From IMG/VR virus record IMGVR_UViG_2734482777_000019: a DNA stretch of 40,224 nucleotides; one strand, 5' to 3'. Shown here one piece after another: positions 1,159 through 40,023 of the stretch; the stretch's first letter is position 1, and every line of letters begins with the position of its first letter. The translations under genes and the position numbers were made by a program. The DNA is from a virus. Lineage: Duplodnaviria > Heunggongvirae > Uroviricota > Caudoviricetes. The notes below the pieces were generated by a model, which saw only the letters and a program-made list of their open reading frames with translations, searched no databases and was not told the DNA's origin.

Positions 1159-1474
1159 GCGACCTTAACAACTATCGAATAGCACAAAGCCTTGCAATCC
1201 AGTGCAAAGCTTTGTGTGTCTCAGTTTGTCCCGTGTCACTAAGATTTCCAACACAAGACGTATCACCGTCTTTATGCCTAGAGATATAATTTTTTGCTAA
1301 TTATTTGAACAATCCATACATTCCATTTATGACTATCCTCAGGAAAGTGCCATGATTAGCACATTTGTCATAATCGTTACTGTCGATCGAGTTACTGCGT
1401 AGTGATACACTTCAACTCATTGTTTTGCAGTGATCATTACGGCTAAGGTATAGTCATTAAATTTAGGATTATAA

Positions 1475-3316
1475 ATGACAGTTACAACAAAGTTCAGAAA
1501 TGACATTAATGGCCTAAGAGCTATAGCTGTTATAAGTGTTGTTTTGTTTCATTTTTCATCTTCTATAATTCCAGGCGGATTTATTGGTGTAGACGTGTTT
1601 TTCGTCATATCTGGATACTTGATGACATCAATTATATTCAGAGGGATAGAATCTAATTCTTTTTCGGTTATTGACTTCCTGAAAGCAAGGGCGAGACGTA
1701 TAGTTCCTGCTCTCGTTGCAGTTGTATTCCTTACACTGATTATTGGTTATATGTTCTTTGAGCCTATGACATTACAGATCATAGGAAAACATTCTGCGGC
1801 AAGTCTAACATTTATTTCCAATATTATTTATCAGTCTGAATCAGGTTATTTTGATGATACATCAAAGCAAAAATTTTTACTGCATACATGGTCGCTATCA
1901 GTTGAATGGCAATTCTATATAATTTACCCGATAGTGTTACTTGCACTGTCAAAGATATTTTCAATAAAAAATCTTAAAATATTTGTTGTTGCGATTGCTG
2001 TTGTTTCTTTTGCATGGTGCATTTACATAACCAGAACTGATCCCGTGTCATCATACTTCAGCATCGCATCAAGAGGTTGGGAAATGATGCTGGGAGGCAT
2101 TGCTTTTCTGTTCCCGTTTAAAGGTAGCGATAAATCAAGACGAGTTTTGGAATCAGCAGGGCTAATATTGATCGCGCTGTCTCTCGCGTTCATGAGCGAA
2201 AGCTTGGCGTGGCCTGGCTACATTGCGTTTATTCCAGTATTCGGGGCCTATATCTGCATTCTTGCTGACAATAAAAGAACCATTCTTTCTGGTAAGATCA
2301 TTGAAAAGCTTGGGCTCTGGTCCTATTCAATATACTTGATCCACTGGCCGGTAATCGTCTTTTGCGAGAAGACGGGAATTGAGTTAAATATTTTCTGGTA
2401 TCTGGCTGGTGTAGTGTCAGCCTCAGCACTACTTTATAGCCTTGTAGAGAAGCGTCGTGGTTATGGATGGGGATTGCTTTTCTGTTATTGTGTATGTCTC
2501 GCAGCCGCTTTGTATGTCAATGTCGACGGGGTAAGTAGTCGCATTAAGAATCCTGATTACCATCTTAATAAAGACCTGTTCCGCCGGGCTTACGAAGGAC
2601 ATTTATGGATGCAGCCTGGAGAGAATGTAGACTACTTCAACGCTACAGAAAAAGACTTTGACTACATCATACTTGGTGACAGCCATGCAAGACACTATTT
2701 CGCTTTCTTCAAACAAAGCGGTCTTAAAGTAGCATCGCTAGCTGCGGATGGTTGTAAAGTTACAAAGCATTTTATGGGGCCGCTAAACTATTCTGAAAAA
2801 CTCAGAAAGATTTGCGAAGGAAGATATAAGAAGGCCGTTGAATTCATTAATGCCCATCCTGGCAAGAAAGTCGTATGGTTGCAAGCGTGGTATACTGGAA
2901 AGGTTGGAAACCCGCTAACGACTGACAATTCTTATAAAAATGATTTCATCAGTGAAATGAAATATTTTCTTGATGATATTAAAGGCTCTAACAGCCAGAT
3001 ATATATTGTTGGTGATACCCAGGGAAGCAAGGAAATCATGTATCAATGCCTGGCATCACAAGACCTTCCTATTAATAAATTATTCAGAAAATGCAATGAG
3101 TTTCAGGATTATATAGAGCCTGCAATGAATAGCAGATTTAAAATATTTGCTGAGCAATATCAAAAAGTTCATTTCGTTGACCCTAGCCCAGCAATATGCA
3201 GTGATGGCAAATGTAGAGTGGTTGATGGAGATATGCCTGTTTACACGGATAACTCTCATCTTACAAAGGTATGGTCAGTTAAGGTTGGTGAATATATCTT
3301 TAGCAAGATAAAGTAG
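1475..3316 (+). CDS. Membrane acyltransferase (acyltransferase-3 family with C-terminal SGNH-like domain), O-antigen acetyltransferase-like moron
   Basis: 613-aa ORF with hydrophobic multi-TM N-terminal two-thirds and soluble C-terminal domain; AT-rich relative to flanks; preceded by AT-rich intergenic region; lies between int and tailspike where P22-like phages carry serotype-conversion genes. Confidence 0.8.
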   Translation: MTVTTKFRNDINGLRAIAVISVVLFHFSSSIIPGGFIGVDVFFVISGYLMTSIIFRGIESNSFSVIDFLKARARRIVPALVAVVFLTLIIGYMFFEPMTLQIIGKHSAASLTFISNIIYQSESGYFDDTSKQKFLLHTWSLSVEWQFYIIYPIVLLALSKIFSIKNLKIFVVAIAVVSFAWCIYITRTDPVSSYFSIASRGWEMMLGGIAFLFPFKGSDKSRRVLESAGLILIALSLAFMSESLAWPGYIAFIPVFGAYICILADNKRTILSGKIIEKLGLWSYSIYLIHWPVIVFCEKTGIELNIFWYLAGVVSASALLYSLVEKRRGYGWGLLFCYCVCLAAALYVNVDGVSSRIKNPDYHLNKDLFRRAYEGHLWMQPGENVDYFNATEKDFDYIILGDSHARHYFAFFKQSGLKVASLAADGCKVTKHFMGPLNYSEKLRKICEGRYKKAVEFINAHPGKKVVWLQAWYTGKVGNPLTTDNSYKNDFISEMKYFLDDIKGSNSQIYIVGDTQGSKEIMYQCLASQDLPINKLFRKCNEFQDYIEPAMNSRFKIFAEQYQKVHFVDPSPAICSDGKCRVVDGDMPVYTDNSHLTKVWSVKVGEYIFSKIK

Positions 3317-3318
3317 TT

Positions 3319-3348
3319 AAAAAGCCTCTACTCAGAGGCTTTTTCTTT
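3319..3348. terminator. Bidirectional intrinsic terminator between convergent acyltransferase and tailspike genes
   Basis: Hairpin agcctct-actc-agaggct flanked by A-run upstream and T-run downstream, so a U-tract follows on either strand. Confidence 0.55.
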
Positions 3349-5149
3349 ATATCACCATATATCTGAAGCTTGCTCCGCCTGCAGCTGGAGAACCTGACTG
3401 CGTAGCAAGGACAAGACTTCCGTTTGATTGACTTAAAACATATGCATTTGCTGCTGCAGCTGAAGCATTTGCTGGGTGAATCACAACTTGTGAATAAGGT
3501 GTTATATTTTCATCAACCAGTGTTGCTGAAGCTACACCACTCAATCCATTGAATGCCTTCATCACCATCTTTTCAGTTGCAGAAAGAAGGACGTTTCTTA
3601 TTGTAAATGTACCTCCTCCAGTTGGGTTTAGCTTTGGAATGAGTGCACTTGTTACGGTTGTAAGATTGCAATTTGTCAAGACAAGATTATTTTGATAACT
3701 GGTAACCTGTGCAATACCTGAATTAACAACAGTGGCATTATTCACGGTGTTATCTGTAGCACCATCCGATTGGTTAACACCACTTTTTCCTGCAGCATTA
3801 ATATAAGCTGAAAGAACTCTGGTATTTGCCGATCCTGCCGCAAAGTTAATACCGTTTTGCTCGCAAGTATTAACATAAACACTCTCAATTGTGGATCCTG
3901 TTGTTGGCAGTCCAGCATGTCCAAAGTTAATACCGTGGAAAAATTGCGTGTTGGTAGATATCAACTTTCCTGCCATGCTCCAGCGGCAATCAAAACCAAT
4001 GCCTGATGCTGATGCAAGATCCACAGATGCATAAAGCAAACGGTTATAATCACCACTAAATTGAATACCAGAATAAGCGTCATCACCAGAAGCGCCTTGT
4101 GCATGCCCTAGTGCCGCAATACTTCTATTAGTTTTGTAAATATAAAACGCTTCATGCCCCCACGATTCAATCCGATCAACGATAAACTTTGAGTAATGGC
4201 ACTGATAGAAAAACAGACAACCAGAGCCGTCATTGCGGATTCCATCTGGTGATGGTGCACTTATAAAAGTGCGAGGGTAGTAATGGTCATGGACATAATG
4301 AGCGTAAAAATCTACGTTCTGACACTCTGTCAGATAGACAAGATGGGTTCCAATCTGTCCTGATTGTCCTGCTTTATTACCATCAATCTCATTAATGTGA
4401 ATTATTAGACCAGAGTTATTACCTGCTGCGTAAAGTAATCTGTCAAAGTCGACACATCCAGACGGTAATTTGAGCTTCCCCTTTACAATCACTTTTTTTG
4501 CTGAAGAAAGGTTGAGATTTTTTGCAACGAGAGTAAACCCTTCGGGAACAATCAGCATACCTATATCGTCAATCATCTTCTGAGCTGAGATTGATGATTC
4601 AACTTCGCTCACAGCTCCCCAATCTGCAACTGTAAGATTCTCTGCATTTTTTTCATGCTGAGTCCTTTTTACTGCTCCGGTATAAGGTTGAATAACAGGT
4701 ATCATTGCATCTCCGTCGCTGATACCTGCACCAATCAAATCTGCAACAGTGTGACCAGGACAAAGACCTATTAATGAGGCTCCATCATCACCAGACAACT
4801 CCTGTCTTAGCTGATCTGGATCATACTTCAACACGTTTGGATAGTTGAACTGCTGTGTACCATAAGCATCGTACACAGCCATAGAATGGCCTTGCACGGT
4901 AACGAATTTGGCAATCTGTCCGTTATATACAGGATAACCAGCAGCGTTAATGATGATTGGTTGCGAAACAGGAACGTGAGAGCCGTCTTCGTTCTCCACA
5001 TAAACCTGAATCTGGTTTTCAGGATTTACCGGATCAGTGTCAATTTTACCGATATAAATTTTGCCATTGGCTACGGCTTTAAAAGAACGCGCCATAGTGA
5101 AGAGTTGCGAAGGCATCGATACGATCACATTGGCTGTAATGTCTGTCAT
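3347..5149 (-). CDS. Tailspike protein with P22-type N-terminal head-binding domain and divergent receptor-binding domain
   Basis: N-terminal ~110 aa ([11 protein letters not shown]...VLKYDPDQ) closely match the P22 gp9 head-binding domain; the remainder is Gly/Ser/Asn-rich, beta-helix-like and not P22-like. Confidence 0.9.
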
Positions 5150-5327: not shown

Positions 5328-6206
5328 TCAGTAGTTATGTACTGAAGGAGGCAATTCTTTATTCTTAAGTCTCATCCATGCGGAAAGATTCGTTGGTCCG
5401 TCTGGCTCATTAATATCAACATCTCGTGTGTGGTTTATTAAAACGTCTCTCGCCATTCCGATAACATACGAGAATTCATGACCGTAGTCGTAGCATCTGC
5501 CGGAATAGTTCGATTGAATTTGTTTTAGCGCCGGATACAGTTCGCGGAATAATGCCTGTGAGCGGTTGGCATAATCCCATAACCATACAAAGCTGTTTGC
5601 TTCTTTTGCAGAAAGCTCGTTGGTTTTCTTCTCTTGTTTGCCAATGAACTCACCTTCAAGCACTACCCTGTGGATGTACTCTACGGCCAGCGGGATTTGT
5701 TCAATTGAAAGTTCATCAATGCTGTCAATACCAAAACGCTGATGAACCATATTGTATGCATCGTCATAGCGAAGTCCTTTCTTTCCTACCAGCATGTTTA
5801 CTGCATCGCGTAGCGGTGTTCTTTCCTCAACAGTGGTTTTCTTTCCTTTTACATACTCGCCATGTTTGCGAATTGAAGGCAGAACTTCTGCTGTTACCCA
5901 CTTGCGGAATTTGTGCGGGACTGAACCTTTATTGACTGCATCGCGGCAGCGCAGAACCAATGTATACATACCTGATTCGCTCACAATGCTTAGATTCTGC
6001 TCACCACCAAGGGTGTAACTTAAAGTTACTCCCTTTTCATCGTCATCAAGTGCAGTAAGCGCCTTGCGTGAGTTAGTCAAATCTAAAGCATCACAAACAT
6101 CTTTAGCTACAAACCACGGCTCACCGCACTTGTTGATGACGCGGATTTCACTGTCGCCGAATTTGAAGATGGTGAAATCGTTTTGTGCCTTTGCTATACT
6201 TTTCAT
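5328..6206 (-). CDS. ant: Antirepressor (Bro-N domain family) of the immI region
   Basis: 292-aa ORF with Bro-N-like N-terminus ([16 protein letters not shown]); located directly downstream of arc as in P22 immI. Confidence 0.8.
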
Positions 6207-6274
6207 GTCAATATTTCCTAATCCGATTTGTTGATGCCGAAGCCCTGACTGTTACAGCAGTTGGGGCTTCAACT

Positions 6275-6436
6275 TTACGCACCAATGCGCCCTTCCTTCT
6301 TAAAGCTTTCCATTACTCGCTGATAAATCTCAGAATTAACAGACCGACCATTTTCTTCCGCCACCTTGCGTACCAAATCCAATACTTCTTTAGGCCACCG
6401 CAAATTGAACTGTGGCATTTTGCTCATTCCTTTCAT
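6275..6436 (-). CDS. arc: Arc repressor (ribbon-helix-helix)
   Basis: Internal Met gives 53 aa MKGMSKMPQFNLRWPKEVLDLVRKVAEENGRSVNSEIYQRVMESFKKEGRIGA, near-identical to P22 Arc; the longer track ORF would start inside the Arc operator. Confidence 0.95.
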   Translation of the reverse strand: MKGMSKMPQFNLRWPKEVLDLVRKVAEENGRSVNSEIYQRVMESFKKEGRIGA

Positions 6437-6452
6437 GTTCACCTCACAATAT

Positions 6453-6469
6453 AGGTCCACGGTGGACCT
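6453..6469. promoter_or_regulatory. Mnt operator (perfect 17-bp palindrome aggtccacggtggacct) within Pant
   Basis: Perfectly symmetric sequence matching the P22 Mnt operator, located between arc and mnt. Confidence 0.8.
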
Positions 6470-6478
6470 ATTGAGAAT

Positions 6479-6499
6479 ATAGTAGAGTGCTTCTATCAT
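6479..6499. promoter_or_regulatory. Arc operator (atagtagagtgcttctatcat)
   Basis: Matches the P22 Arc operator sequence on the opposite strand; immediately upstream of the arc start on the minus strand. Confidence 0.8.
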
Positions 6500-6526
6500 G
6501 TCAATACACTAACTTGGAGTGATGGC

Positions 6527-6781
6527 ATGGCTAGAGATGATCCGCACTTTAACTTCCGTATGCCTTTGGAAGTAAGAGAAAAATTGAAATTAAGAGCCGA
6601 GGCTAACGGAAGGTCAATGAACTCTGAGTTATTACAAATCGTTCAGGATGCACTATCAAAACCATCACCGATTACAGGATATCGCGACGAAGCTGAACGC
6701 TTGGCTGATCAGCAGGCTGAGCAGTTCAAGGCTATAGTGTTTGAGACACTTAAAAAGATTTATGAAAAGGATTTGAAATGA
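6527..6781 (+). CDS. mnt: Mnt repressor (maintenance of lysogeny, RHH family)
   Basis: 84-aa ORF MARDDPHFNFRMPLEVREKLKLRAEANGRSMNSELLQIVQDALSKPSP..., near-identical to the P22 Mnt N-terminal domain. Confidence 0.95.
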   Translation: MARDDPHFNFRMPLEVREKLKLRAEANGRSMNSELLQIVQDALSKPSPITGYRDEAERLADQQAEQFKAIVFETLKKIYEKDLK

Positions 6782-7113
6782 GATTTCTATCACTGTTCTT
6801 GTTAGCAGTTGTCTCTTCTTCCAGTGCTGAGCTGCGCGAGCTTCAAACGGGTAATGACCTTCTTTACAACATTCAACAAGGTAAAAAGGGTGATGATTTT
6901 TCATCGCTTTACATTACTGGATATTTGCGCGGAGTAACTGACTCATTGATACTAATTGGTTCTCTATGTCCTCCTGATGGCGTTGACATGTATCAATACA
7001 CCGATATCGTTGAGAAATATCTAAACAAAAACCCAGAATCAAGAAATGAGAGTGCAGTTATACTAACCGCCCTAGCAGTAGGAAAAACATTTCCGTGCAA
7101 AAAGAATCAATAA
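6778..7113 (+). CDS. Hypothetical secreted protein (cleavable signal peptide), translationally coupled to mnt
   Basis: 111-aa ORF; start overlaps the mnt stop (ATGA); N-terminus MRFLSLFLLAVVSSSSA is a typical signal peptide. Confidence 0.6.
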   Translation: MRFLSLFLLAVVSSSSAELRELQTGNDLLYNIQQGKKGDDFSSLYITGYLRGVTDSLILIGSLCPPDGVDMYQYTDIVEKYLNKNPESRNESAVILTALAVGKTFPCKKNQ

Positions 7114-7128
7114 CAATAAGGGCTTAAA

Positions 7129-7518
7129 ATGAAATTGATTATAGCAATGGCTTTCCTTGTCTTCTCGTTTTCTGTCTCAGCAGAGTGCTGGGTCGTTGGA
7201 GATATGCACGGAATAAGCTATTCAGAACGAAATAATTTTCAACCGGAAGAAGATGGTTTTAGTGGAACATTCATCATTAAGACAAACGGTGAAGATGCCA
7301 GTATCACATATTCTGGGACGGATGCGGGCGGCATGGCTTACAAAGCATTGTCTAAAAACTCCATCATTGGAATCGGCGCGAATGGCGAAACTCAACGAGT
7401 TATCGACTCATGGGTAATACATCCTAATGGAACAGTTTTAATGTCGAAAACCATTTCTGGTTATGGGAATATGGATTCAACCAAAGCTTTTGTTGGAAAA
7501 GTAAAAAGAAAATGTTAA
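7129..7518 (+). CDS. Hypothetical secreted/periplasmic protein
   Basis: 129-aa ORF with signal peptide MKLIIAMAFLVFSFSVSA followed by ECW; 15-nt spacing after the previous gene, same operon as mnt. Confidence 0.6.
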   Translation: MKLIIAMAFLVFSFSVSAECWVVGDMHGISYSERNNFQPEEDGFSGTFIIKTNGEDASITYSGTDAGGMAYKALSKNSIIGIGANGETQRVIDSWVIHPNGTVLMSKTISGYGNMDSTKAFVGKVKRKC

Positions 7519-7542: not shown

Positions 7543-9384
7543 TTACTGCTGTGTTGCCTCAGTAGCAAGCAGCGGCCTGATGGCATTTGCAGCGTTACTC
7601 AACGCTCTTTCATAGGCTGGCGTTCCAGCTTTAGTGTTTGCCAGACGTAAGAGAGCATTCCTTGCTGCTTTGGACTCATACAAACGCATCATTGCACCAA
7701 AGCCAGCCTCAAGCCCCATTGATACACCAAGAGTCGCAGTTGCGCCAATCGTCCTTATCCTGTTGGCTTGTGATTGCCCCGTCTGAGTTACTACATTTGC
7801 GGTGTCTGACCTTGCTGTTTGCTGTAGAACTTCATGAAGAGCATCAAGCTCTTTCATGTGCTTTCCAGAAAAAATAGTGTTGTAAATTTCACCGCCTGAC
7901 TGAGATTTCAGCTTATTAACTTCAGTGATGAACTTGGCTGGAGAGTCACCGGCCTTTTCCGCTATTTTGCTGACGTAAGCTGCACGCATAGCATCTTTCC
8001 CTTTATCATCCAGGGCGCTCCATATTCGTTTCACGTCAGATGGTTTTCTGCTTAATACAACGGTATTTATAAGTTCAGGACTGGCTTCACTGCTTGCCTT
8101 GTTGAGCTTGTTAGCAATGTTTTTATTAAGCACCTTATTATAAACGTTTGCATAATCGGAATTTGCTTTAAGGTATTTTGCTGCGTCTGATGCACCGAGG
8201 TTTTTAGCAACTGCGTTACGAAGGTCTTTTGACATTGCATTCTCTACCATATTGGTAGCTGCTTTTGCCTGGTTGGGGAAGACCATAGCATCTCCCTGAA
8301 CATTAGATCTAAATGCTGTTCTGTGCTGACGCAAGAGATCAAACGTAACATCCAAATCAGTTGCAGGGTTTGCTAATTCTTCACGTAGGTTACGCAAGGA
8401 TGTAAGCAGGCTTTGATTGGCAGACGTCCCAAGCCGTTCCTGTCTTGCGATCGCTGTATTCAGAGCATTCATGGTATTTGTGGTATCAACTGCGGCATTA
8501 CCCATTTTATTGGTGACGTCATTGATAACAGCGCCAGCGGCATCCTTCCGCCCCCTTAACGTGGTGGTAAGAGATTTCACCACATCATCAGGGTTGTACT
8601 CACCAAAACGGTCAAAATAATTACTTACCAGCTTACTACGCGTTGCATATTGCTCCGCTCGCTTTGAGCCTGTCCCGAGCAAAGCCCCCTCGGCATCCTG
8701 AGTTAGGCCGCGAGTGAAAGCATTTTTCGGCGGGATAACATCAGATGTCATTGGTGTCACGCCCATCGATTCTGATGTGGCAATTTTCTTCGCCACTTCT
8801 GGCGCAATATCACCTTTTATAGCCGTTATTCCACGCCCTATTCCCTTTGCTGCTGCGGAAAGAACACCCTGAGTGGCAAGGTTAACTCCGGCATTTTTAG
8901 CTGCATTTTGTGCGAAATCGCCTTTCTGATTTGCGGCCTCTGCCAGTGATCCAATAGCCATGCTTCCTGCCGTTCCAACTCCTGGAACTAAATACCCACC
9001 AATTGTTTCACCGGCTTGCGCGTAGGGGTCTGTCGGTCTGTCTACTGGACGATAAACATCATCCAAAACCTTGGGTCCACCAAGCCCCTGACTGATTGCA
9101 TTAATCAGACTTGCGCCGCCCTGCAATACGTCAAATGGTATGTTTACCAGACCACGACCAGCCTGTTCTGCAATTTGCCCTGCACTTTGACCACCAGTGA
9201 GCCAATCGCCAGCTTGTTGGATCAATGATGGTTCTTCCCGTGTTGGTGCATTATTGGCCTGATTAACTGTTTGTTGCTGAACAGCCTGACCAGCAAAATA
9301 CTCATCAATGGCGGTGCCAATATCTTCGGTGCTCGTACCATCAGGAAAGGTAAATGTCTTACCGTTTGCAGTTACTTTCATCAT
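7543..9384 (-). CDS. Ejection (internal/injection) protein, P22 gp16-like
   Basis: 613 aa (P22 gp16 is about 609 aa), last gene of the gp7-gp20-gp16 ejection cluster; Ala/Gly-rich. Confidence 0.85.
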
Positions 9385-10796
9385 TCCACCGTAAATTGAA
9401 TGCCTGATTTTGAGGTATATGATCCAACCTGATTCCGTGGTTCTCCTGAAGGTGTCGAATCTTGTGCTGGCGCTGCGTCAGTATTCATTGACATATACCG
9501 CTTAACGGCACTCCCCAATGATTCACCTTTTTTAACATCCAACCCCAATATCTGACCGCCATTACGCGATTGTCCAGGGTTGCCATTCGCGCTCATCCAC
9601 TCGGCTTTAAACTCATTAAACTGCGCGTTTCGTCGCTCAAGGTTTGCCATTGCATCAAGCCATCTTGCGACCGTCTCAGGGTTATCCATGTCAGTTGGCG
9701 CACCCTGTCGAACGATCTCAACGTCTTTATCCGTTGCTGGGCCGGGAGGTAGGAATTTAAGAACCTGACTGTTAACAAGGGCATTTTGGCGAATGCGCAA
9801 ATCACGCAATGTTGTATCGCTTCCGGTAAGTTTTGCGAACATGTTCTGTGCGTTACCGAACAAACCTGTCGTTGGTTTTTCTGCTCTGAACTGTTGAGCA
9901 AGCGCACTCATAGAATTGGCTGAGTTTGATGATGCTGTAGCATTGTTTACAGCCGTCTCGATGCCTTTTTCCATGTTTACTGACAGCTTAGGTGCTTCGC
10001 TAATCAACTGCTGAGCCTTTTCCTGCGCTTGCTGCATCTTAAACCCGAACTCTTGCTGATCCAGAGCCAAGCGTTGTGCTGCGATATTGTGCCCAGTCAT
10101 TGCTGACTGATAGGAAAGGTTTTGCCCTCTCGCCTGAAGTGCTTCACCAGCCTGATTGCTGCGGATTGTCTCTGCCAGCCTGCCTCGGTCAATCTCACGA
10201 CCAGCCATCTTGTCCTGAACAGCAAACGCCTTTTCTGGCCCAAGTGCACCGAGAGACATAGTAGTCAGCATGTGTGATAGCTGCTCTGGATTCTGGATAC
10301 CTGTCTGAATCATCCAGTCAGCATTCGCACCCACGCGATTTAACCTGTCCTTGTTGTCAGTAATGAATTTACTGTAGGCTTCCGGTCCCTGGGAAAGAGC
10401 GACGTTAGCCCTCATGGCTAAATCGCCCATATCGTTGCGTTGCTGCTCATTAAGACCGGAAAACGCCTGTTGTGCCTGTGCAACAAACGCTGGATTTTCC
10501 TGGGCAAACTTAAATAGTCCAGATGGATCACCAGAAGCCCATGCATCAGCGTGAACCTTATTGAACGCACTAATAGCTTTCTGTTGCTGTTCCTGATTGT
10601 AAATATCAGCAACTCCAGCCAGACCACGTAACGCGGTCAGACCAATGTTATTTGCACCTGAGCGAGCCAGTTCATTGTTTTCGCGGATCAGACCAAACGT
10701 TGCGTTAATGTCGCTTTCCTTTGGCGCATTCTCATTTTGCGTACCGATGCCAGCCAGAAAACCACCAGAATTAATACCCTGTTGCCACGTAGCCAT
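9381..10796 (-). CDS. Ejection protein, P22 gp20-like
   Basis: 471 aa, same length as P22 gp20; positioned between gp7 and gp16 with overlapping stop/start. Confidence 0.85.
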
Positions 10797-23401: not shown

Positions 23402-23477
23402 TGGTGCTGGTTAACGGACTTGAACCGCTACCCATTCGCTTACAAGGCGACTGCTCTACCATTGGAGCTAAACCAGC
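23402..23477 (-). tRNA. tRNA-Thr (anticodon UGU)
   Basis: 76-nt cloverleaf GCTGGTT..GCTC/GAGC D-arm, anticodon loop CTTGTAA, T-arm GGTTCAAGTCC, acceptor AACCAGC, discriminator A, encoded CCA; one mismatch at the base of the anticodon stem. Confidence 0.7.
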
Positions 23478-23482
23478 ATATT

Positions 23483-23557
23483 TGGCGGGACAGCGTGGAC
23501 TCGAACCACGATAAGAAGGTTAACAGCCTTCCGTAATGACCTTTATACGACTGACCC
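23483..23557 (-). tRNA. tRNA-Asn (anticodon GUU)
   Basis: 75-nt cloverleaf: acceptor GGGTCAG/CTGTCCC (1 mismatch), anticodon stem GAAGG/CCTTC, loop CTGTTAA, T-arm CGTGG-TTCGAGT-CCACG, encoded CCA; loop and T-arm match E. coli tRNA-Asn. Confidence 0.75.
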
Positions 23558-39978: not shown

Positions 39979-40023
39979 ATTGCCTGATTTGCAGGTTCGA
40001 TTCCCTATTCGGAGATAGCACTC

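Follow-up and report, generated by a model that had tools for sequence, protein, structure and literature searches.

An O-acyltransferase gene convergent with a chimeric tailspike gene in an Sf6/HK620-like prophage of Escherichia coli: a candidate cassette for modification of the phage's own receptor

Does a prophage that carries a membrane acyltransferase gene tail-to-tail with its tailspike gene use this enzyme to change the very receptor that the tailspike recognizes? The question is raised by the IMG/VR virus record IMGVR_UViG_2734482777_000019, a stretch of 40,224 nucleotides assigned to the Caudoviricetes and called the window below, in which the two genes lie close to the integrase gene int. 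A preliminary description, made from the letters of the DNA, had suggested that the pair brings about a lysogenic serotype conversion masking the receptor used by the phage. Our analysis makes it probable, by analogy and with clear room for doubt, that the acetylase cassette of this prophage alters the receptor used by its own tailspike, the two being coupled by position and by class of function. Masking of the receptor through serotype conversion is suggested by the precedents of Sf6 Oac and BTP1 GtrC and by the comparative context. The region is organized as follows (coordinates of the window, strand, feature).

1-1158, + strand: int, tyrosine integrase gene of the IntS/Sf6/HK620 type (open reading frame (ORF) list; Pfam Phage_integrase, Phage_int_M and Arm-DNA-bind_3)
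1183-1216, + strand: hairpin just downstream of int, an inverted repeat with 14-nt arms that are 93% complementary
1231-1474, + strand: AT-rich upstream region of the acyltransferase moron, 244 bp, GC content 0.352
1475-3316, + strand: gene of a fused AT3-SGNH membrane O-acyltransferase, 613 amino acids (aa), with the OafA/OafB architecture (Pfam, phrog, motifs, model)
3319-3344, no strand assigned: bidirectional intrinsic terminator, a perfect 11-bp hairpin (terminator scan)
3347-5149, - strand: tailspike gene, 600 aa, convergent with the acyltransferase gene (ORF list)
3347-3364, - strand: last five codons of the tailspike gene (RYMVI) and stop (alignment with body variants)
3365-4654, - strand: tailspike aa ~166-595, exchangeable receptor-binding parallel beta-helix body, presumably a depolymerase (identity profile, model)
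4655-4810, - strand: tailspike aa 114-165, neck or linker, retained with the N-terminal module in body exchanges
4811-5149, - strand: tailspike aa 1-113, P22-type head-binding (virion adaptor) domain (PF09008)

The window is a prophage with the order int ... xis, because its boundaries fall exactly on the ATG of int and exactly on the stop codon of a TorI/HkaC-type excisionase gene. The int gene forms the left end of the prophage and its product is 98.4% identical to Sf6 Int. Sf6, HK620 and their relatives among the E. coli P22-like phages share 94-97% identity with the window in the first 1.2 kb and in the part encoding the tailspike N-terminus. The E. coli contig JUBW01000022.1 (assembly GCA_000797715.1), which encodes the window's tailspike and on which int, the acyltransferase gene and the tailspike gene are contiguous, matches the window at 100% identity throughout the 15,149 bases compared. 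On this contig, the tRNA-Arg(CCT) gene (argW) ends ~160 bp upstream of the int ATG, near yfdC and mlaA, and the annotation of E. coli strain Tig228 shows the same argW arrangement. The window is an Sf6/HK620-like (Lederbergvirus-type) prophage integrated at argW of E. coli, and the region studied here is its lysogenic-conversion end.

The AT-rich gene found between int and the convergent tailspike gene encodes, as the preliminary description had seen, a membrane acyltransferase of 613 aa. Acyl_transf_3 (PF01757) covers aa 9-319 (E 3.8e-30; 105.5 bits, Pfam gathering cut-off 31) and the AT3-fused SGNH domain (PF19040) covers aa 394-601 (E 2.8e-26; 93.2 bits against a cut-off of 27), both in one polypeptide that is read from a single ORF without internal stop. 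The protein matches phrog_6705, an "O-antigen acetylase" of the moron category, over its full length (E 2.8e-147). The AT3 part carries the motifs R15-X10-H26, GGFIGVD (34-40), FFVISG (42-47) and R72xxR75. The SGNH triad is made of Ser403, in GDS 401-403, and of D592xxH595, and paired cysteines are present in the periplasmic domain. The R/K-X10-H and RXXR motifs were found to be essential in OafA and OafB by mutagenesis (Pearson 2020, PMC7448272), and a GG-F/Y-XGV-D/P/V motif is specific to fused AT3-SGNH proteins (PMC7448272). All the residues reported there as essential in OafA/OafB are present in the 613-aa enzyme. In an alignment of 38 homologues, 39-61% identical to the window protein, R15, H26, R72, R75, S403 and H595 are invariant and D592 is kept in at least 90%.

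The AlphaFold model of the acyltransferase (mean predicted local distance difference test score, pLDDT, of 92) has a membrane domain of helices and, after it, an alpha/beta domain. About 11-12 long helices precede aa 352, and the hydropathy peaks are compatible with 10 transmembrane helices and an 11th linking helix. The sole PDB match obtained by Foldseek with E <1e-3 is 6SE1, the periplasmic domain of OafB, a lipopolysaccharide (LPS) acetyltransferase of Salmonella Paratyphi A (target-normalised template modelling (TM) score of 0.61 over 239 columns; 15% identity). Searched by sequence, the PDB yielded only spurious matches of the acyltransferase to repeat proteins, and no NCBIfam equivalog reached its cut-off for either the acyltransferase or the tailspike. 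The preliminary description had named a pseudogenised acyltransferase among the outcomes that would refute its proposal. The gene is not a pseudogene, because all motifs are present and the ratio of non-synonymous to synonymous substitution rates (dN/dS) is 0.089. This ratio was obtained with the 97% identical copy in the related locus L005, from which the window gene differs by 54 synonymous and 19 non-synonymous changes. The acyltransferase gene is thus intact and under purifying selection.

The closest homologues in deposited phages are annotated as O-antigen acetylases or acyltransferases and belong to Escherichia phage vB_EcoP_PAS61 (57% identity), Enterobacter phage Tyrion (46%) and BTP1 (GtrC, 45% in the AT3 half). 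The nearest relative that is not identical, from Morganella (62%), is encoded convergently with a different tailspike at a prophage end. The acyltransferase lineage travels with tailspikes, as the Morganella, Tyrion and PAS61 homologues are all tailspike-adjacent.

Downstream of int, the homology to HK620, HK633 and Sf6 stops at ~1206-1230. The hairpin at 1183-1216 matches in position the terminator annotated downstream of int in HK620 and closes the phage backbone ahead of the moron; the fold of 1159-1235 has an energy of -20.6 kcal/mol (z -2.9). From 1231 to 1474, no blastn match was obtained among deposited phages. The GC content is 0.352 there, 0.388 in the acyltransferase gene and 0.411 in the tailspike body, as compared with 0.478 in int and 0.468 in the whole window, so the AT-rich upstream region that the preliminary description had attributed to the acyltransferase does exist. 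It is 90-100% identical in the related loci L001, L006 and L007. A search of the spacer revealed no ORF of more than 44 aa, no small genes and no gtrA remnants. The promoter scan pointed to a promoter-like site at 1347-1374 (GTGCCA, 16 nt with an extended -10 TG, CATAAT), which is a weak call. An AGGA ribosome-binding site was read directly at 1465-1468, six bases before the acyltransferase ATG. Two GATC sites, 47 bp apart, are also found in this upstream region, at 1385 and 1432. Phase variation through Dam and OxyR is common among gtr operons, but BTP1 gtrC does not show it (PMC4413052).

At the other end, the 30-bp intergenic gap between the two convergent genes holds the terminator 3319-3344, AAAAAGCCTCT-ACTC-AGAGGCTTTTT, flanked by an A-run and, at its opposite end, by a T-run. 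It folds about equally well in both readings, with -14.7 kcal/mol (z -4.2) for the + strand and -14.3 kcal/mol (z -3.8) for the - strand. The hairpin and these energies bear out a terminator shared by the acyltransferase and tailspike genes and working in both directions. It is kept in L001, L006 and L007, and L005 has a variant hairpin. With all its motifs, its own AT-rich upstream region, the promoter-like site and the terminator, the acyltransferase gene has the make-up of an intact moron. The ORF coordinates, the domains, the GC contrast and the hairpin are confirmed and stand far beyond chance.

The tailspike gene is a chimera. The homology searches of both proteins that had been proposed at the outset confirmed a P22-type head-binding tailspike beside the AT3-SGNH acyltransferase. 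The P22-type N-terminus is retained: PF09008 spans aa 1-113 with its whole profile covered (E 1.1e-65, 219 bits), the first 115 residues are 88.7% identical to those of Sf6, and the PDB matches are the N-termini of the Sf6 and P22 tailspikes. The adjoining segment is modelled with low pLDDT over aa 109-152. Weak similarity to the Sf6 tailspike, the product of gene 14, extends to ~aa 211, and the identity between the two bodies is ~24%. Apart from one short match to Klebsiella phage tail proteins (39-40% identity over 80 residues, body-query 23-102, 16% of the query), no relative of the body was found among 50,697 phage records. A large protein database yielded 32 relatives, whose N-termini carry PF09008, PF18668 (Tail_spike_N), or PF18668 together with PF03906. 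The model of the body is a right-handed beta-helix with short strands repeated over aa 198-600 and a pLDDT mostly >90, and its best PDB fold matches are the tailspikes of Sf6 (top), P22 and HK620. The receptor-binding body, first described as unrelated, is therefore unrelated by sequence but not by fold, which is the same beta-helix as in the Sf6 tailspike. The acidic residues D256, E333, D387 and D462 are invariant across the tailspike-body family and would fit a glycosidase site.

The junctions of the exchange could be mapped by comparison with L006 and L007. The DNA identity to these two loci is 99-100% through int, the spacer, the acyltransferase gene, the terminator and the last five tailspike codons, drops abruptly to ~50-60% until ~4650, and returns to 88-100%. 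In the protein alignment with L007, about six scattered substitutions are seen up to ~aa 165, after which the sequences diverge. The tailspike body is a cleanly exchangeable module, because identity breaks sharply at both ends. On the downstream side, identity with the body variants is perfect through TTATATCACCATATATC and is lost beyond it. The segment 3347-3364 is conserved together with the terminator across body variants, and this pattern marks it as the downstream recombination junction. The chimeric nature of the tailspike is thereby borne out, with swap junctions at ~aa 165 and at the last five codons.

The genes that accompany this body in other genomes are central to the question. The related loci, designated by L numbers, are listed with the identity of their tailspike body to that of the window, their context and the modifier gene found.

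L001 (Tig228): body 99%; decayed P22-like prophage at argW; same 613-aa acyltransferase behind the tailspike
L005: body 85%; P22-like; same 613-aa acyltransferase
L006 and L007: body ~51%; P22-like prophages at argW; same 613-aa acyltransferase
L010: body 88%; siphovirus-type; GtrC-like and GtrB-like genes (7874-10203 of the locus), then an int fragment
L011 and L013: body 71-72%; Enterobacter prophages; AT3-only acyltransferase (335 aa, 7875-8882, in L011); int present in L011, L013 cut at the contig end
L014 and L015: body 51%; lytic-type; no modifier
L016: body 51%; Providencia prophage; no modifier adjacent
L023-L032 (IMG/VR metagenomic viral contigs): body 40-46%; no homologue of the tested modifiers

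The acyltransferases of the P22-like loci L001, L005, L006 and L007 are 97.2-99.7% identical to that of the window, and P22-like prophages at argW with the acyltransferase behind the tailspike also include L019-L022. A modifier convergent with the tailspike is found in six related temperate loci of three kinds and in the window prophage, and is absent from both lytic-type contexts. IMG/VR provided just one close relative, plus ten distant ones (40-46% identity); in these ten contigs, L023-L032, no homologue of the modifier query genes lies within 4 kb. The coupling is real as one of position and function class, a receptor binder beside a receptor modifier in temperate phages, and not as a fixed gene pair. 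The pairing put forward in the preliminary description thus stands for position and class of function and falls for specificity, since one acyltransferase goes with bodies that are 51% identical and one body goes with different modifiers.

Two side observations concern these loci. The modifiers of L010 and L011 suggest alternative chemistries acting on one receptor. Locus L001 (NZ_CM196107.1, 1522049-1542109) is a prophage remnant of ~12 kb at argW that has lost its head genes and keeps intact int, acyltransferase and tailspike genes, plus xis (torI).

A mechanism can be proposed from these elements. The moron, at ~1231-3346, provides an intact AT3-SGNH O-acyltransferase with its own upstream region and a two-way terminator, tail-to-tail with the tailspike gene. 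By comparison with the enzyme family (PMC7448272), acetyl groups from cytoplasmic acetyl-CoA would cross the inner membrane via the AT3 domain (R15/H26, R72/R75), and the periplasmic SGNH domain (Ser403, Asp592, His595) would move them onto an O-antigen sugar. Judging from Sf6 Oac, BTP1 GtrC (PMC4413052) and the gene context, the acyltransferase would be expressed from the repressed prophage. The same precedents and context suggest that the acetylated O-antigen may escape binding or cleavage by the phage's own tailspike. The lysogen would then resist superinfection by phages of the same specificity, and its O-antigen would be spared from tailspikes freed on induction. A comparable role is established for BTP1 GtrC, which is necessary and sufficient against BTP1 and counteracts the tailspike-dependent shortening of the O-antigen (Kintz 2015, PMC4413052). 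The site behind the tailspike gene takes up different receptor-modifying genes, and replacement of the tailspike body is independent of this.

One genome offers a lead to the receptor. Roughly 50 assemblies hold the tailspike or acyltransferase clusters. Of 5426 complete E. coli genomes, a single one carries the cassette, that of Tig228 (99% coverage, 98.8% identity), whose O-antigen cluster holds annotated O136-family wzx and wzy genes together with the pseudaminic acid genes pseBCFGI. The Tig228-type wzy occurs in 4 of the 5426 genomes, and a coincidence of the cassette and the O136 wzy would have a chance of ~7e-4 if the two were independent. Pse5Ac7Ac is a component of the O136 antigen (PMC7685785). 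The receptor is possibly an O136 O-antigen containing pseudaminic acid, which we regard as a lead drawn from a single lysogen rather than as a finding. None of the complete E. coli genomes contains the ~51% variant body, and no phage depolymerase for an O136-type O-antigen was found in the sources searched.

Several observations weigh against receptor modification by the cassette as set out above. An acyltransferase that is 99.7% identical lies behind bodies that are only ~51% identical to the window's; either one glycan is recognized by both bodies, or enzyme and tailspike are not matched. The Providencia prophage L016, with a body of 51% identity, has no neighbouring modifier gene. The promoter at 1347-1374 is a 9/12 match to the consensus, of which the region holds 8 against 12.8 expected in shuffles. 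The link to O136 comes from one genome, in which the prophage is a 12-kb remnant. The alternative to which we give most weight, unlikely as it is, is that the adjacency is positional only. The gap between tailspike and int would then be a permissive site for morons, and a serotype change would benefit the host, for instance by immune evasion or by resistance to other phages, and leave recognition by the phage's own tailspike unaffected. This would agree with the independent recombination of acyltransferase and body (bodies of 99%, 85% and 51% identity, with sharp junctions at the terminator and at ~aa 165), with the presence of the same tailspike body beside gtr genes or an AT3-only gene elsewhere, and with an acyltransferase that is still intact in the decayed 12-kb Tig228 remnant. 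However, the studied cases of the same synteny do block the cognate tailspike, namely BTP1 GtrC and P22 Gtr (PMC4413052); Sf6 Oac is likewise known to do so. Moreover, every temperate context with an integrase in the tailspike family has an O-antigen modifier at exactly this position and the lytic contexts have none, and bodies 51% identical are placed in one "RBP subtype" (receptor-binding protein subtype) if the threshold found to follow serogroup, an identity of 30% or more, is applied (PMC10408124).

Receptor modification also has to be compared with explanations that change the acceptor or the sense of the modification. The enzyme might acylate another glycan (enterobacterial common antigen, colanic acid, capsule, or peptidoglycan as OatA does) with no link to the receptor. 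AT3-SGNH proteins do include peptidoglycan O-acetyltransferases such as OatA (PMC7448272), no equivalog of NCBIfam reaches its cut-off, and the acceptor substrate is not readable from sequence. We nevertheless consider this very unlikely, as the best phage-family match is an "O-antigen acetylase", the sole significant structural match is the LPS acetyltransferase OafB, and the closest characterised phage relative is BTP1 GtrC (45%, AT3 domain), in a lineage consistently found beside tailspike genes; in addition, peptidoglycan O-acetylation in Gram-negative bacteria normally relies on PatA/PatB (see also PMC12148441). A combined view, in which the body family is specific for the O136-type O-antigen with pseudaminic acid and is masked by AT3-SGNH, AT3-only and Gtr chemistries in different temperate phages, as in an experiment made by nature, one of the two bodies linked to the same acetylase possibly being an escape allele that tolerates acetylation, ranks between these two alternatives and appears doubtful. 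A reversal of the relationship would be the least expected of all and is highly improbable: the tailspike or its 51% variant would prefer the acetylated O-antigen, so that the receptor is made or preserved, or the variant would be a masking-escape allele. Two deeply divergent bodies are indeed linked to one identical acyltransferase. But this reversal is without precedent among P22-like serotype converters, and leaving the receptor exposed would bring the prophage no exclusion benefit and cost it those released virions that adsorb to lysogens.

Comparison with known systems places the cassette with the receptor-modifying type of Sf6 Oac and BTP1 GtrC, its enzyme having the OafA/OafB/GtrC-BTP1 architecture. 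Sf6 is the same type of phage, with a nearly identical Int and an attP core upstream of int at argW. It shares with the window the identical order and orientation of xis, attP, int, a modifier with its own promoter, a terminator and a convergent tailspike gene, and ~89% identity in the head-binding part (115 residues). The two differ in the modifier and in the tailspike body. Sf6 Oac is a 333-aa AT3-only protein, whereas the window enzyme is a 613-aa AT3-SGNH protein and not an orthologue of Oac, the family motifs being the extent of any meaningful similarity; the DNA identity of ~31-52% between oac and the window modifier is background, and tblastn aligned a 137-aa stretch at 36%. The bodies (~24% identical) have the same beta-helix fold but belong to different sequence families.

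BTP1 GtrC (family 2 GtrC, OafB) offers the closer enzyme, an AT3-SGNH acetyltransferase encoded beside the tailspike gene of a P22-like prophage and 45% identical in AT3. It is an O-antigen rhamnose acetyltransferase whose activity needs the RXXR motif and the C-terminal domain (PMC4413052). BTP1 has another host and another O-antigen, and tblastn aligned the AT3 half alone (52% of the query). With Salmonella OafA/OafB, the window enzyme shares the architecture, the four AT3 motifs, the SGNH triad and the paired cysteines of the periplasmic domain. It is without the G.ND block III, which is itself atypical in OafA/OafB, and has no similarity to the PDB chain that is detectable by sequence search. 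Unlike a gtrABC operon, the stretch between int and tailspike in the window contains no GtrA, GtrB or GtrC ORF, homologues of which occur in L010. PAS61 and Tyrion (Uetakevirus) have full-length acetylase homologues adjoining a tailspike gene, but they are of another genus and their tailspikes are unrelated. The Tyrion homologue is convergent with a tail fibre gene, as in the window, whereas the PAS61 pair is co-directional, the acetylase directly following the tailspike.

The modular tailspikes of E. coli Lederbergvirus and Uetakevirus phages likewise combine a conserved N-terminal anchor with a C-terminal receptor-binding domain exchanged across genera (PMC10408124), and the specificity of these tailspikes tracks the O-serogroup of the host (Virol J 2023;20:174, PMC10408124). 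In the window tailspike, by contrast, the junction is placed beyond the head-binding domain, at ~aa 165, and that work makes no mention of O136. Tailspike modularity and O-antigen modifiers behind the receptor-binding proteins of Lederberg- and Uetakevirus phages have already been described (PMC10408124), and the present understanding of such cassettes is left unchanged. The additions made here are minor: a tailspike body subtype that had not been deposited, a possible O136 specificity, and a clear independent exchange of masking and binding modules. If the proposed modification is correct, the prophage O-acetylates the O-antigen of its E. coli host, possibly O136, and so alters the serotype, the sensitivity to O-antigen phages and possibly the recognition by antibodies. 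The tailspike body, a sequence type that deposited phage genomes lack, might be developed into a reagent for serogroup-specific binding or depolymerisation. The loose coupling between binder and masker is also relevant when host range and phage resistance are to be predicted from the prophages that a genome contains.

The location of the attachment site could also be settled. The spacer 1159-1474 had been thought to hold attP as well, and it had been suggested that it be compared with tRNA and tmRNA genes. The tRNA and Rfam scans of the spacer gave no tRNA, tmRNA or Rfam match, and this placement is rejected. In the HK620 and Sf6 records the attP core is annotated upstream of int, between xis and int, and these records and the host contig put the core upstream of int at argW, outside the window. 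No match to the argW/att core was found in the window, with up to 3 mismatches allowed. At 39990-40004 (+ strand), ~20 bp upstream of the xis start, 15 nt agree exactly with the argW T-arm (TGCAGGTTCGATTCC), and such a match has a chance of ~11% in shuffles. The same identity is present in HK620, whose record assigns the integration promoter and a cII-binding site to this region. This match was rejected as an att core and represents a conserved region upstream of xis that is common to HK620.

Beyond the conversion end, the prophage contains a P22-type immI region (5328-6781) and, between this region and gene 16, a second low-GC moron at 6778-7518 (+ strand). This moron encodes a 111-aa signal-peptide protein with the Pfam domain Rap1a (type VI secretion effector immunity family; phrog_3870) and a 129-aa signal-peptide protein to which no function was assigned (phrog_2651). 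The features of the immI region and a pair of tRNA genes further downstream are the following.

5328-6206, - strand: Ant-like antirepressor gene (Bro-N and P22_AR_C; Pfam/phrog)
6208-6274, + strand: sar antisense RNA (RF00262, 65.6 bits)
6275-6499, - strand: Arc-like gene of the immI region
6527-6781, + strand: Mnt-like gene of the immI region
23402-23557, - strand: adjacent tRNA-Thr(TGT) and tRNA-Asn(GTT) genes (tRNA and Rfam scans)

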